A stretch of DNA of 28,465 nucleotides from Chlamydiota bacterium (lineage in GTDB: Bacteria > Auribacterota > Tritonobacteria > UBA1439), in the NCBI GenBank assembly GCA_037133055.1, contig JBAXOY010000028.1, positions 1-28,465 of the forward strand, given 5' to 3'. Below the pieces are notes generated by a model. The model ran no database searches. It was not told the DNA's origin and saw only the letters and a list, made by a program, of their open reading frames with translations. The translations under genes and the position numbers were made by a program. Below, one piece after another: positions 52 to 9,470 of the stretch. Within the stretch, counting starts at the first letter, position 1, and each line of letters opens with the position of its first letter.

Positions 52-101
52 ACTGGTGGAGCTGGGGGGAATCGAACCCCCGATCTCTTGAATGCCATTC
101 A
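52..101 (-). repeat. Duplicated 3' part of tRNA-Ala (att-like direct repeat)
   Basis: 52-101 matches 1025-1074 over 50 bp with one mismatch (t84 vs c1057). It covers the anticodon loop through CCA. Confidence 0.95.
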
Positions 102-185
102 CTTTTTTTGTTTTGCGAACTCGGTGACCGCTTGTGCCAGGTTCGTTTTCAGGGACTTCCGACATCTCACACCCCATATCCCCAC

Positions 186-330
186 GAAAGAATCAACAGG
201 GTCAAACCTTTACAAGAATCAACAGGGTCAAACCTTTACTCTTTACTAAGTGCTAAGTGAAGAATCAGGGTCACACTAAGTGGCATACAGATGCCTCAGT
301 AAAGAGTAAAGGTATGACCCCGGTGACCCC
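186..330. repeat. Rearranged copy of the 903-980 hairpin element
   Basis: Perfect 26-bp tandem AAGAATCAACAGGGTCAAACCTTTAC (188-213, 214-239), CTAAGTG duplication (246-259), partial restart at 260-273, loop plus right arm at 275-322, extra TGACCCC at 324-330. Confidence 0.9.
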
Positions 331-379
331 TATTTCTCGCCATTGTTCTGATTTGCTTTCAATCTCTCGCGCCTTGGCG

Positions 380-889
380 CTATTTTGTTTCCGGCATCGC
401 AGATGAATGATGGCTAATAATCAACCACTTCGAACCATCCCATCGGTAGGTGAAGCTATACCGTCCGTTTACCACCTCACCGGTCTTGGCGAAAGTAAAT
501 GTGTATAATCCGGAATCTACCGCCATATTGCAGCCTATTTCAATCTGGCGAAGGTCGATTTTGCCGGATGGACGCTTTTCCAAAAAGTGACGGAAGTAAT
601 CTTCTTTTTCAGCCGGTGTTAATCGCGGCTTGTTGGATACTGTGGGTAGAAGAATTGACCTTTCAGCATAGTTTGCGACAACCTTACTCGGATCCCCCGT
701 CTGCAATGACTGATTCCAACGGTCAAAAAGTGCCGCGATTTCAACTTCACTGGCAGGCTTGCAACGTTCACTATGTGTAACTAGCCGTGAGGCGGGTTCT
801 TTTGGGGGGACGGCACATCCAACAAGCACCTCCAACGCGATTGCAGCAGTTACAGCAGGGTAGCAGGCAAAAATTTTATAAATCTTCAT
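380..889 (-). CDS. SgcJ/EcaC-like (DUF4440 / CaMKII association domain, NTF2/SnoaL fold) putative lipoprotein
   Basis: LVGC lipobox-like motif after a hydrophobic stretch. Family-typical motifs FDRWNQSLQTGDP, LLPTVSNKPR, DSGLYTF, RYSFTY, WLIISHHSSAMPE. Confidence 0.85.
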   Translation of the reverse strand: MKIYKIFACYPAVTAAIALEVLVGCAVPPKEPASRLVTHSERCKPASEVEIAALFDRWNQSLQTGDPSKVVANYAERSILLPTVSNKPRLTPAEKEDYFRHFLEKRPSGKIDLRQIEIGCNMAVDSGLYTFTFAKTGEVVNGRYSFTYRWDGSKWLIISHHSSAMPETK

Positions 890-910
890 ATCGGCATTTT
901 AGGAAAGAAT

Positions 911-980
911 CGGGGTCAAACCTTTACTCTTTACTAAGTGGCATACAGATACCTCAGTAAAGAGTAAAGGTTTGACCCCG
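911..980. repeat. Perfect 25-bp inverted repeat with 20-nt loop
   Basis: CGGGGTCAAACCTTTACTCTTTACT (911-935) is the exact reverse complement of 956-980. It is preceded by GAAAGAAT, as is the left copy, and followed by a duplicated CCCCGTGCTCG (976-986, 990-1000). Confidence 0.95.
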
Positions 981-1026
981 TGCTCGCGGCCCCGTGCTCG
1001 TACGGTCAGAAACTGAGGAAAAGTAC

Positions 1027-1102
<76 letters not shown>

Positions 1103-2511: not shown

Positions 2512-3012
2512 ATGAAAATCAAGGGCAGGGCGTGGAAGTTCGGCGACGACGTGAACACCGACGAGATCATCCCGGCGAGGTACCTGAACACCATCGACCC
2601 CGCGGCGCTCGCCGCGCACTGCATGGAGGACGCCGGCCGCGAATTCGCGGGGAGGGTGGGGAAGGGCGACCTCATCGTCGCGGGCAAGAACTTCGGCTGC
2701 GGCTCCTCCCGGGAGCACGCCCCGATCGCCATCAAGGCGGCGGGGGTGGGCGCGGTGATCGCGGCCTCCTTCGCGCGGATATTCTACCGGAACGCCTTCA
2801 ACATCGGACTGCCGATATTCGAGTCCCCCGGGGCCAGCGCGGCCATCGCCGCCGGCGACGAGATCGAGATCGACGGGGGGAGCGGGGAGATTCGCAACAT
2901 CTCCCGCGGAGAAGAGTATCGCGCCGCGGCGATCCCCCCGTTCATGGAGGAGCTCGTCAGGGCGGGGGGGCTGATGGCGTACGTCAAGAAGCGCGTGGCG
3001 GGGCGGGACTGA
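2512..3012 (+). CDS. leuD: 3-isopropylmalate dehydratase small subunit
   Basis: GDDVNTDEIIPARYL, NFGCGSSREHA, SFARIFYRNAFNIGL. Confidence 0.95.
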   Translation: MKIKGRAWKFGDDVNTDEIIPARYLNTIDPAALAAHCMEDAGREFAGRVGKGDLIVAGKNFGCGSSREHAPIAIKAAGVGAVIAASFARIFYRNAFNIGLPIFESPGASAAIAAGDEIEIDGGSGEIRNISRGEEYRAAAIPPFMEELVRAGGLMAYVKKRVAGRD

Positions 3013-3052
3013 ACCGGCGGCTGTTCCGCCGGGAGGAACGGGGGAGGGAACA

Positions 3053-4114
3053 ATGGCACGTAACCACGAGATCGCGGTGATCGCCGGCGACGGGACCGGG
3101 CCCGAGGTGATACGGGAGGGGCTCAAGGTCCTCAGGGCCGCGGCGGAAAAATTCGGCTTCGGGATAAAGACCCGGGACTACGACTTCGGGGGGGAGCGCT
3201 ACCTGAAGACTGGCGAGACGCTCCCCGACGGGGCCGTCGAGGAACTACGCGGGTTCAAGGCCATCTACCTCGGCGCGATCGGTCACCCGAAGGTGAAGCC
3301 CGGCATCCTCGAGAAGGGGATACTGCTGAAACTGCGATTCGAGCTCGACCAGTACATCAACCTGAGGCCCGTGAAGCTCTACCCCGGCGTCGAGACCCCG
3401 CTCAGGAACAAGAAGCCGGAGGATATCGACTTCATCGTGGTCCGTGAGAACACCGAGGACGTCTATGCGGGGATCGGGGGATTCCTCAAGAAGGGCACCC
3501 CCGACGAGGTGGCGCTTCAGGAGATGATCTACACCCGCAAGGGCGTGGAGCGCTGCGTCCGCTACGCCTTCGAGCTCGCCAGGACGCGGAAGCGGAAGAA
3601 GCTCACCTTCTGCGGCAAGACGAACGTGCTCACCTACGCGCACGATCTGTGGCAGCGGGTGTTCGACGAGGTGGCGGCGGAGTACCCGGACGTCCGGAAG
3701 GATTACGCGCACGTGGACGCCACCTGTATGTGGATGGTGAAGAGTCCGGAGGTCTTCGACGTCATCGTGACGACGAACATGTTCGGCGACATCATCACCG
3801 ACCTCGGCGCGATGATCCAGGGCGGGATGGGGATCGCGGCGGGGGCCAACATCAACCCCTCCGGCACCTCGATGTTCGAGCCGATCGGCGGCTCGGCCCC
3901 CAAGTACACGGGAAAGAACGTCATCAACCCGCTCGCGGCGGTGTGCGCGGGGGGGATGATGCTGGATTTTCTCGGAGAGAAAGAGGCCGGGCGCGCCGTC
4001 GAATCCGCCGTGATGCGGGTGGTTTCGACGAAGCTGAAGAGCCTCTCCGCGGGGAAGATGGGCTGCGGAACCGATGAAGTCGGAGATATGGTTGCCGCCC
4101 TCGTGCAGGGATGA
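3053..4114 (+). CDS. leuB: 3-isopropylmalate dehydrogenase
   Basis: GDGTGPEV, NLRP, VRENTED, NMFGDIITDL, FEPIGGSAP, NPLA. Confidence 0.93.
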   Translation: MARNHEIAVIAGDGTGPEVIREGLKVLRAAAEKFGFGIKTRDYDFGGERYLKTGETLPDGAVEELRGFKAIYLGAIGHPKVKPGILEKGILLKLRFELDQYINLRPVKLYPGVETPLRNKKPEDIDFIVVRENTEDVYAGIGGFLKKGTPDEVALQEMIYTRKGVERCVRYAFELARTRKRKKLTFCGKTNVLTYAHDLWQRVFDEVAAEYPDVRKDYAHVDATCMWMVKSPEVFDVIVTTNMFGDIITDLGAMIQGGMGIAAGANINPSGTSMFEPIGGSAPKYTGKNVINPLAAVCAGGMMLDFLGEKEAGRAVESAVMRVVSTKLKSLSAGKMGCGTDEVGDMVAALVQG

Positions 4115-4192
4115 AGTCGGAATACGTCGACCCTCACGCCGACACAATCGGCGCGGGCACATGATACGGGATGTAGATGAGGAGATTACATC

Positions 4193-5203
4193 GTGTCCAG
4201 ACTTTATAATGTGGCGATCGCCGGCGCGACCGGCGCCGTAGGGGCGGAGATGATCCGCACCCTCGTGGAGCGCAGGTTCCCGGCGGGGAAGATACGGCTG
4301 CTCGCATCCGCGCGGTCCGTGGGGAAGAAGCTCCGTGTTGCGGGTGAGGACATCCCGGTCGAGGAGCTCAAGGCCGACTCGTTCATGGGCGTCGAGATCG
4401 CCCTCTTCAGCGCTGGCGCTTCGCGCAGCAGGGAGTTCGCCCCGGCGGCCGTGAAGGCGGGGGCGGTCGTGGTGGACAACTCGAGCGCCTTCCGGATGGA
4501 CGCGGAGGTCCCGCTTGTCGTCCCCGAGGTGAACCCGGAGAAGGTCCGGGAGCACAAGGGGATCATCGCCAATCCCAACTGCTCCACCATCATCATGGTT
4601 GTCCCCCTCTGGCCGCTCCACCAGGCGGCCCGTATCGTGAGGATCGTGGTGGCCACCTACCAGGCGGCATCGGGGGCGGGGGCGGGCGCCATGGCGGAGC
4701 TTCGGAATCAGATCCGCGAAATCGAGGAGGGGAGGGATCCGGGGGTCTCCGTCCTCCCGCAGCAGATCGCCTACAACCTGTTTCCGCACGTGGATGTCTT
4801 CATGCCCAACGGATACACGAAAGAGGAGATGAAGATGGTCCACGAGACCAGAAAGATCTTCGGCGACGACTCGATCCGGGTGACCGCGACCTGCGTGCGG
4901 GTGCCGGTGCTCCGGGCGCATTCGGAGGCCGTGAACATCGAGACGGAGCGGAAGCTCTCAGCCGACGAGGTGCGGCGCATCCTGGCGAAGGCCCCCGGCG
5001 TCGCGCTCGTGGACGAACCGGAGCGGAAGCGCTACCCGATGCCCCTCACGGCGACCGGGCAGGGCGAGGTCCTCGTGGGGCGCATCCGGGAGGACATCTC
5101 ACAGCCGAACGGCATCGACATGTTCATCGCAGGCGACCAGCTTCTGAAGGGGGCGGCTTTGAACGCCGTGCAGATCGCGGAACTCGTCATCGGCAAGGTC
5201 TGA
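4193..5203 (+). CDS. asd: Aspartate-semialdehyde dehydrogenase
   Basis: GATGAVG, DNSSAFRM, ANPNCST, TCVRVPV, LLKGAALNAVQIAE; GTG start after GAGGAG. Confidence 0.97.
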   Translation: MSRLYNVAIAGATGAVGAEMIRTLVERRFPAGKIRLLASARSVGKKLRVAGEDIPVEELKADSFMGVEIALFSAGASRSREFAPAAVKAGAVVVDNSSAFRMDAEVPLVVPEVNPEKVREHKGIIANPNCSTIIMVVPLWPLHQAARIVRIVVATYQAASGAGAGAMAELRNQIREIEEGRDPGVSVLPQQIAYNLFPHVDVFMPNGYTKEEMKMVHETRKIFGDDSIRVTATCVRVPVLRAHSEAVNIETERKLSADEVRRILAKAPGVALVDEPERKRYPMPLTATGQGEVLVGRIREDISQPNGIDMFIAGDQLLKGAALNAVQIAELVIGKV

Positions 5204-5209
5204 ACATTT

Positions 5210-5326
5210 GGACGCGGATCGCCGCGGATACACGCGGGTTTAAAACGTTTACTGAACCAAGAACCCCGAACGCTGAACGCTGGTTGTCTCTGCGTCCATT
5301 TTGACGATCTGCGTTCATCTGCGTGC
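5210..5326. repeat. Intergenic periodic element: inverted 10-mer arms around a 7-mer array
   Basis: nnnCGCGG(A/G)T x3 (5210-5239), GAACnnn x4 (5254-5281), CTCTGCGTCCA (5288-5298), ATCTGCGTnC x2 (5307-5326). Confidence 0.8.
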
Positions 5327-5358
5327 TCCATTGAACCGCCTCCCTTGAAGATGCGTGC

Positions 5359-6105
5359 ATGGATAACGACCGCAACATCAAACTGGTGATCGAGTATGAC
5401 GGCACGGACTACTGCGGCTGGCAGGTCCAGCCGAACGGCCCCACGATCCAGGAGAAGGTCGAGGCCGCGATCGCCCGCATCACCGGCGAGACCGTGCGGG
5501 TGGCGGGGGCCGGGCGGACCGACGCCGGGGTGCATGCGGCCGGGCAGGTCGCGAATTTTCACACCGCGAGCCGCCTCCCCGCGAAGCGGCTCCTCGCCGC
5601 GCTGAACGCGGTGCTCCCCCCCGATATCGCCGTCCTCTCCGTCGATGATGCCGGGAGCGTCTTCCACGCGCGCTTCAGCGCGAAACGCAAGCTCTACCGC
5701 TATGCCATCCTCAACCGCCCCGTCCGCCCGGCGCTCGACCGGTGGACCGTCCTTTACGTTCCGCGCCCGCTCGACGTCGAGGCGATGCGGGATGGCGCGC
5801 GATGCCTTGTCGGGACGCATGACTTCTCCTCGTTCGGCTGCAACGCGGGAAAGGACGACAACCCGGTCAGGACTGTCCGCGCGGTGTCGGTCGAGCGGAG
5901 GGGAGAGCTCGTCCTCATCGACATAGAGGCGGTGAGCTTTCTCTACAAGATGGTCCGGACCATCGCCGGGACGCTGATCGCGGTCGGCAAGGGCTCGCTC
6001 CCTCCGGCTGGGGTCGCCGTCATCCTCGCCGCGCGCGACAGGAGCAGGGCGTACCCTACCGCCCCCGCGCACGGGCTGAGCTTGATCAGCGTTTCTTACG
6101 ACTGA
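5359..6105 (+). CDS. truA: tRNA pseudouridine(38-40) synthase
   Basis: EYDGTDYCGWQVQ, AGRTDAGVHA, FHARFSA, GTHDFSSF, FLYKMVR. Confidence 0.97.
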   Translation: MDNDRNIKLVIEYDGTDYCGWQVQPNGPTIQEKVEAAIARITGETVRVAGAGRTDAGVHAAGQVANFHTASRLPAKRLLAALNAVLPPDIAVLSVDDAGSVFHARFSAKRKLYRYAILNRPVRPALDRWTVLYVPRPLDVEAMRDGARCLVGTHDFSSFGCNAGKDDNPVRTVRAVSVERRGELVLIDIEAVSFLYKMVRTIAGTLIAVGKGSLPPAGVAVILAARDRSRAYPTAPAHGLSLISVSYD

Positions 6106-8798: not shown

Positions 8799-9470
8799 CT
8801 ACTTCTTCGCCGCCGCCTTTGACTTCTTCTTGAGCGCCTTCTTGATCACGAGATAGGCGCCGTTCGCGCCCGGCACCGCCCCGCCGATGAGAAGGATGTT
8901 CTTGTCATCGAGCACCTTGACCACTTTCAGGTTCTGGACGGTGGCCCGGGCGTTGCCCATCTGGCCGGCCATGCCGAGCCCCTTGAACACCCTTCCCGGG
9001 AACGAGTGCTGGCCCACCGAGCCGCCGTGGCGGAAACACTCGTGTGTGCCGTGGCCGGCGTCGAAGCCGTGGAAGTGATGGCGCTTGATGACGCCGGCGA
9101 AGCCCTTCCCCTTCGAGACTCCGCAGACGTCGACGAACTCGCCCTCCTGGAAGACGGCGGCGCCGATGACCTGCCCGGCGGTGAAGTTCTTGAACTCGTC
9201 CCCGGAGACGCGCACCTCCCGGAGAAACTTGAATGGGGGTGTGCCCGCCTTCGTGAAGTGCCCCAGGAGGGGCTTCGTGAACGATTTGGCCTTGCCCTCG
9301 TTGAAACCGAGCTGCAGGGCGTGGTAGCCCCCCGCGTTGCCGTTCTTGAGCTGGACGACCGTACAGGGGCCTGCCTGAATGACGGTGACCTGCACGGCCT
9401 TCCCGTCGTCGGTGAATACCTGGGTCATGCCCAGCTTCATGCCCAAGAGCCCCATTTTATAATCTCTCAT
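8799..9470 (-). CDS. rplC: 50S ribosomal protein L3 (uL3), isolated copy
   Basis: GMKLGMTQVF, VTVIQAGPC, SKGKGFAGVIKRH, PGRVFKG, MAGQMG, GAVPG; ATG at 9470 after GAGGA. Confidence 0.95.
   Translation of the reverse strand: MRDYKMGLLGMKLGMTQVFTDDGKAVQVTVIQAGPCTVVQLKNGNAGGYHALQLGFNEGKAKSFTKPLLGHFTKAGTPPFKFLREVRVSGDEFKNFTAGQVIGAAVFQEGEFVDVCGVSKGKGFAGVIKRHHFHGFDAGHGTHECFRHGGSVGQHSFPGRVFKGLGMAGQMGNARATVQNLKVVKVLDDKNILLIGGAVPGANGAYLVIKKALKKKSKAAAKK

Follow-up and report, generated by a model that had tools for sequence, protein, structure and literature searches.

TIRtrons and TIRYT were published in 2013 by Di Nocera et al., and in the accessible part of that description their terminal inverted repeats (TIRs) share the sequence GGGGWSAS and occur as singles, dimers and groups (PMC3733652). 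Subclass 2.1.2 of TnpA-Y1, as far as the available part of the classification by Quentin et al. (2018) goes, comprises a Y1 enzyme with a DnaA-like tail (PMC6006769). Cleavage by HUH enzymes leaves a 5'-phosphotyrosine and a 3'-OH, and according to the accessible part of the work on TnpA-REP an unrelated 3'-OH can resolve the link (PMC8266576).

The window, i.e., the whole stretch of 28,465 nucleotides analysed here (contig JBAXOY010000028.1 of a Chlamydiota bacterium, genome G000 of our set), contains close to its start a hairpin-ORF-hairpin unit, which sits between a tRNA-Ala(GGC) gene and a 50-nt copy of the 3' half of this tRNA (Table 1). A preliminary description had regarded the unit as a candidate for a new integron-like cassette system, in which two hairpin copies of the same orientation serve a trans-acting enzyme that captures single genes. 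We instead consider it rather probable that a TIRYT HUH-Y1 enzyme, acting in trans, introduces a nick into single-stranded DNA some 10 nt outside GGGTCA and joins the resulting end to other DNA, and that two neighbouring copies of the element trimmed a larger island at tRNA-Ala to one gene.

Table 1. Features of the tRNA-Ala islet and of the elements within it (positions in the window)
Feature	Position	Strand	Basis
tRNA-Ala 3' 48-nt duplicate, att-like islet end	52..101	-	50-nt copy, 98% identical; extends to 42 at 93%
Islet-end remnant, non-coding	102..185	.	sequence
Stutter: leader and first 15 nt of left TIR	186..213	+	sequence
Left element: 11-nt leader and left TIR (225-250)	214..252	+	sequence
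Internal stutter: CTAAGTG repeat and third leader with GGGTCA	253..274	+	sequence
Left element: loop and right TIR (295-322)	275..322	+	46/48 identical to 933-980
Right-TIR end stutter (323-330) and outer leader of about 10 nt	323..339	-	sequence
Cargo segment, ends about 10 nt outside both inner arms	340..902	-	sequence; join position inferred
Predicted 169-aa lipoprotein, SgcJ/EcaC family	380..889	-	homologue comparison
10-nt A-rich leader travelling with the element	903..912	+	shared with copies at 186, C3:30866 and C130:2941; composition shift at -10
Right element, an internally deleted TIRtron: left and right TIR with a short spacer between them	913..978	+	folding, L006 arm identity
Outer leader of right TIR with 11-nt stutter (976-986 again at 990-1000)	979..1000	-	sequence
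tRNA-Ala(GGC), islet target; sigma70-like promoter 1185-1157	1027..1102	-	tRNA and promoter scans

The hairpins and their relation to TIRtrons

By their sequence, both hairpins are gene-less, internally deleted TIRtrons, composed of a left TIR, a short spacer and a right TIR. At a locus of a related genome (L006), inverted arms enclose a gene for a 337-aa HUH-Y1 protein (PF01797), and the first 23 nt of the window's arms are identical, letter for letter, to both of its TIRs. The next base agrees as well, with A at the end upstream of the gene and G at the other end. Since both the arms and the asymmetric base equal the ends at L006, the hairpin corresponds to the two ends of the transposon minus its gene. 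Like a MITE it is short (66 bp) and non-coding, and its arms are the TIRs of an autonomous partner. The link to HUH (Y1) nucleases, which the preliminary description had named for palindromes of the GGGG(A/T)CA type, is supported by this identity, and so is its expectation of a trans-acting enzyme and of hairpins with other cargo: a Y1 gene is co-located with the arms at L006, and copies on contig C3 of G000, a second locus, enclose a different foreign gene.

The elements probably belong to TnpA-Y1 subclass 2.1, a placement made on domain layout and TIR type only. The HuH and Y motifs of the enzymes are aligned, HFH and the Y of YLHLNP being invariant or nearly so among six PF01797 proteins; matches to a C-terminal HTH tail (Bac_DnaA_C/DnaA) are weak and below the cut-off in three of the six, and the L006 protein has none. 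G000 possesses eight Y1 genes, four of which (on C4, C17, C64 and C88) have GGGTC-type TIRs on both sides, and a fifth (C11) on the one side that is assembled. A Y1 gene with the exact arm of the window was not found in the G000 assembly (92% complete), and the G000 enzyme nearest to that of L006 is 70% identical and has a different arm. Compared with the start GGGG[AT][CG]A[CG], the arms of the window begin with GGGGTCAA (7 of 8 positions) or AGGGTCAA, and sister subfamilies in G000 begin with GGGGTCAG, a full match. Other hairpin subfamilies can be paired with the arms of resident TIRtrons, namely those at C20, C65, C68 and C62 with C11, those at C11, C40, C42 and C92 with C64, and that at C41 with C88. 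No target-site duplication of fixed length was constant in the listed flanks of hairpins and TIRtrons, and the stutters at the junctions vary. The complete TIRtron on C88 (G000:C88:4960-6090, L012), stuttered at its left end, occupies precisely the space from a stop codon to the next ribosome-binding site; at this site G002, a genome of the same genus, has a permease gene instead, of which G000 carries a 56% homologue elsewhere.

The right copy is a hairpin in the strict sense: its 28-nt arms (911-938 and 953-980) are 96% complementary, and as single-stranded DNA it folds at -28.5 kcal/mol (z -8.5), which none of 200 shuffled sequences equalled. The left copy (186-330) shares the leader GAAAGAATC, the loop and the orientation with it, as originally described, and is the same element scrambled via short duplications; the description of it as a second clean hairpin had to be given up. 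A leader with an arm fragment and a leader with a full arm are followed by a 22-nt insert and by the loop and right arm, which together have one substitution, and the copy ends with a repeat of GTGACCCC (Table 1). Logan contigs from the runs X2, X3 and X4 cover positions 52-252, 223-942 and 223-501 with zero differences from the window, no listed piece spanning the entire stretch; the scrambling is therefore genuinely present in the DNA, and an assembly artefact as its cause is ruled out. The intrinsic-terminator scan did not return the hairpin because of its long loop. Among 13 Rfam matches the tRNA alone exceeds the threshold, and the miRNA matches, which reflect a generic hairpin, are far below it.

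The arm as query in an exact scan of the genome contigs gave eight stretches, all in one genome. The inventory of G000 consists of 13 hairpins, three pairs of about 1 kb (gene length) and 21 single arms, in a count that dropped arms scoring below 22 or lacking an exact GGGTC and hence excludes C4. Ten of the 13 hairpins are solitary, free of cargo and situated in host-like DNA with a GC content of 0.63-0.73. The remaining three, all of the window's subfamily, bracket foreign genes in the tRNA-Ala islet and on C3. The dispersed TIR pattern is found in all nine genomes of the class, with reversed controls at zero; the full hairpin with the window's loop is found in none of the seven other genomes of the family, three of which have the arms alone. 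Viral contigs gave no exact arm match. Of the loci from the metagenome scan L018 alone is new; L017 and L019 have the same sequence as the window and C3 and are not independent. The comparison of inner and outer GC content around single arms gave a mixed picture.

Co-oriented single arms were also observed between small accessory genes, five of them in L018:602-2522 and three in L041:2823-5559; judged by eye, these genes resemble toxin-antitoxin modules. One of the L018 arms comes after an apparent half attC. On C130 of G000 (2941-6081) two co-oriented arms surround two genes, presumably RecQ-like and nucleotidyltransferase-like as judged by eye, and the latter is broken where its copy outside the arm is (-9). 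In L040 (G003:C152:20000-34103), where some ten paralogous genes for secreted proteins stand in tandem, three co-oriented arms recur as a component of the duplicated unit.

The tRNA-Ala islet, its cargo and the integron remnants

The nesting of the unit in a tRNA islet was recognised correctly from the start, the tRNA gene and the copy of its 3' end being 98% identical over 50 nt. In all five relatives examined, tRNA-Ala is present without an adjoining duplicate. Outside the hairpin pair the islet retains about 110 nt only, too little for an integrase island, so a deletion likely occurred. A search of the 78 other genomes of the phylum revealed no intact parent island, and the matches to 102-185 are all no better than E 0.002. 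G002 lacks the islet at tRNA-Ala and is too diverged for mapping of the junctions; as a clean empty site was not obtained, insertion and deletion are not directly distinguishable. A further arm of the window's subfamily follows tRNA-Val at a distance of about 60 nt (G002:C1:56278, L189:3781), which together with tRNA-Ala and rnpB makes three copies near the 3' ends of structural-RNA genes.

The ORF product belongs to the SgcJ/EcaC family (TIGR02246; CaMKII_AD/DUF4440, NTF2-like), and its nearest single-domain relative (P0029) is 84% identical. The preliminary description of the ORF as compositionally foreign, starting about 20 nt from the hairpin and devoid of an evident ribosome-binding site or promoter stands in every point. 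Its GC content is 0.47 compared with 0.64 for the genome, and its GC3 0.46 compared with 0.92 in leuC. The start aligns with the starts of six of eight homologues (the other two have short N-terminal extensions); about 22 nt separate it from the arm and 13 nt from the leader. These 13 nt contain no visible Shine-Dalgarno motif, and the promoter scan returned only the promoter of the tRNA and one site within the ORF. Homologues occur in two of the 78 other genomes of the phylum and in none of the seven of the family; none of three homologue loci examined has the hairpin repeat or an islet match beyond the ORF. In the signal peptide (820-889) a Glu replaces an Ala of the 84% relative in the hydrophobic stretch. 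The gene has lost its promoter and, considering this exchange, may perhaps be decaying.

On C3, the window's element brackets an ORF for a 487-aa membrane protein directly behind a gene that we take, by eye, to be rnpB, and the insert is absent from G002. Upstream of the ORF lies a 49-nt module that ends with GTT and is 84% identical to a site located divergently before the integron integrase of G006; on this resemblance it is an attI-like site. The 3' end of the ORF is a decayed attC-like stretch, followed by the sequence that on C11 follows a canonical-looking attC, and the cargo includes the start of a second cassette. The simplest reading of the C3 cargo is thus an integron piece with a cut at either side. 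On C72 (G000:C72:14943-15183, L156) intI is broken off in its first codons by fusion with a single TIR arm; its promoter and the attI-like site, with an ORF after them, remain. Altogether, G000 contains four attI-like modules (C3, C72, C1 and C52; L146, L156, L158 and L159) and no intact IntI. Three of the four are located at most about 1.3 kb from a TIR arm, compared with 3% of the genome within 1.5 kb, a comparison confounded by the shared preference for islands.

That the hairpins lack an attC consensus, as first reported, is upheld: the hairpin ends with GTCAAAC/GTTTGAC in a near-perfect stem, in which neither the boxes RYYYAAC/GTTRRRY nor extrahelical bases are found, and none of seven TIGR02249 matches in G000 (92% complete) exceeds the cut-off for IntI. 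A strict home-made attC scan of G000 yielded one implausible match and missed the C11 site, which a looser scan found, and therefore carries no weight. Without attC boxes and IntI, a new integron-like site was rejected. The proposal of a new integron-like cassette system is not supported either, given a hairpin that is a MITE-like TIRtron derivative, ten of 13 hairpins without cargo, opposite ORF orientations at the two loci (against the written orientation of the element in the window, along the element on C3), the absence of the repeat from all three homologue loci and a cassette look of C3 that is owed to a genuine integron.

The C3 precedent and the presence of integron integrases in three of the nine genomes of the class also suggest that the cargo of the window could derive from an integron cassette that lost its attC and first bases to a cut and that owes its single-gene, promoterless form to IntI and not to the hairpins. 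The short 5' flank would agree with this origin, and an AAC 12-14 nt before the left junction could begin an attC. This AAC is weak, however, a crude scan found no attC around the ORF, and the two cellular homologue loci examined have ribosome-binding sites of their own and no evident attC. We therefore regard such an origin as very improbable; it concerns the source of the cargo and is compatible with the trimming of an island.

Leaders, stutters and the proposed trimming of accessory DNA

The ends of the elements bear an A-rich leader of about 10 nt. Its motif AAGAATC recurs with the window's subfamily at C28, C3 and C130, which indicates that the leader travels with the element. Stutters of at least 9 nt across the outer junction occur at nine of 50 ends in G000 and at 13 of 128 ends in other loci, compared with 24 among 3000 sites chosen at random; for the other loci the difference from these random sites has a Fisher p of about 1e-9. 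The 128 ends contain 36 of an earlier count, two of the 13 are longer repeats rather than clear stutters, and the random control was not GC-matched. The stutters start 8-12 nt outside GGGTCA; the cut-off of 9 nt favours offsets of 8-9, and 10 of the 24 control matches fall at 8-11. Among stutters of at least 14 nt, ten of 11 begin 9-12 nt outside GGGTC, and at the inner side they stop anywhere between 5 and 29 nt within the arm. The bias for purines and A sets in at -10, and the positions -2/-1 are YR in 56 of 62 matches. Outer flanks cease to match a homologue elsewhere at -9 (C72 versus C19; C130) and -10 (C44), while other flank matches end at -6, -14, -17 and -28. At C44 of G000 (8905-9150) the arm is inserted at -10, and a promoter-like stretch of 45 nt upstream is duplicated about 190 nt later.

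The pattern of leaders and stutters predicts a cut about 10 nt outside each repeat. In the TIRYT scheme, all enzymatic steps of which we infer, a HUH-Y1 enzyme supplied in trans would nick a single strand at this distance outside GGGTCA and, after nicking near -10, would stay attached to the leader and TIR. Attack by a nascent strand already inside the TIR would produce stutters whose outer start is fixed and whose inner end varies, as is observed, and attack by a distant 3' end would produce deletions, new junctions and fusions of single arms to foreign DNA.

Both ends of the window's cargo (about 340-902) coincide with the -10 positions, and no more than about 110 nt of islet are left, which makes trimming of an island the simplest explanation. 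Further support is provided by the C72 arm fused into intI and by the C3 pair, which cuts an integron on both sides. It is possible, from the arrangement of the outer arms, that the unit at 186-1000 forms a composite element. Against trimming stands the observation that the four copies with the loop occur as two closely spaced pairs, each enclosing exactly one intact ORF (chance roughly 5e-6, assuming uniform placement), as random trimming would need selection or a pre-formed cassette.

The pairing is the chief support for a capture of cassettes driven by TIRYT, the idea of the preliminary description with TIRYT as its enzyme, in which cargo and one element, as a single-stranded circle, join beside a resident element and so yield direct repeats of the element around the gene. 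All four loop-bearing copies are direct repeats paired around a foreign ORF, at C3 as in the window; a 9-nt trailer is common to the C3 copies and a 9-nt leader to those of the window, and co-oriented arms part accessory genes at L018 (five arms) and L041 (three arms). The ORF polarity differs between the two loci, however, the trailers in the window differ, ten of the 13 hairpins have no cargo, and the C3 cargo, in which an attI and the beginning of a second cassette are included, points to arbitrary cut points in an integron. As evidence for a circle there is one Logan joint from 981 to 222, with unknown letters in between, which fits the C3 locus equally well. We thus consider capture via circles unlikely.

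It is also conceivable that two independent MITE insertions struck a tolerant islet that already held the gene, the bracketing being incidental, with neither capture nor trimming. Solitary hairpins are indeed the rule in G000, the two copies in the window differ at two of 48 positions, and islands of low GC content tolerate insertions. Such insertions would nevertheless require a separate cause for the lost interior of the island and for the lost promoter of the gene, and leave unexplained both the same pairing at C3 and the truncation of intI at an arm, so we find this quite improbable.

Beyond the trimming of an island that we prefer, the mini-elements may constitute a Y1-HUH gene capture system that nicks about 10 nt outside its ends, joins any free 3' end, lifts single genes, including integron cassettes with their attI, and parks them behind RNA genes with strong transcription such as tRNA-Ala or rnpB; we put this forward as a doubtful extension. 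If true, it would represent an integrase-free route that feeds on integrons and replaces them. The leaders and stutters define a substrate (the 66-nt hairpin with 10 nt on either flank) and predict where it is cut, and L006 provides the enzyme that matches it, by which the function of TIRtrons and TIRYT becomes open to direct assay. If the ends accept any 3'-OH, these elements would be a frequent cause of the trimming of islands, the decay of integrons and the capture of genes in uncultured lineages.

Comparison with known systems

The elements of the window resemble TIRtrons and TIRYT in the GGGGWSAS-type TIRs, in the Y1 HUH gene that these enclose and whose product has a DnaA-like HTH tail, and in the dispersed TIRs. 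The accessible parts of the descriptions contain no outer leader of about 10 nt, stutters, bracketing of cargo, truncation of integrons or biochemistry (PMC3733652, PMC6006769). Literature searches, with most subscription journals outside their reach, gave no account of leaders, stutters or cargo bracketing by these elements.

REPIN/RAYT systems likewise have a doublet of hairpin-forming repeats that also flanks a Y1 gene, according to the portion of the source available (PMC3116915). Cleavage outside the repeat with strand transfer, as reported for TnpA-REP in the accessible part of that work (PMC8266576), is for the window a proposal by analogy. In contrast to REPIN/RAYT, the window's element is without a GTAG foot and its arm is not itself palindromic, and the Y1 proteins score 69-72 bits with NF047646, under the cut-off of 80, outside the REP/REPIN groups 2-3. 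Integron cassettes likewise consist of one ORF without a promoter, flanked by direct repeats that form folds when single-stranded; the window differs from them in its near-perfect stem, without extrahelical bases and RYYYAAC/GTTRRRY boxes, and in an ORF polarity that is not fixed.

In the MITE-flanked integrons of Acinetobacter and the IMU elements, two identical non-autonomous elements bracket and truncate accessory or integron DNA, with the transposase supplied in trans; the parts of these reports at hand give lengths of 288-439 bp and target-site duplications (PMC3575428, PMC3934969). The window's elements, by contrast, are hairpins of 66 bp with a link to Y1 HUH enzymes, and no fixed target duplication was seen. 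With these differences, the best reading of the locus remains one by analogy to the MITE-flanked integrons, namely that pairs of mini-transposons would trim and bracket accessory DNA.
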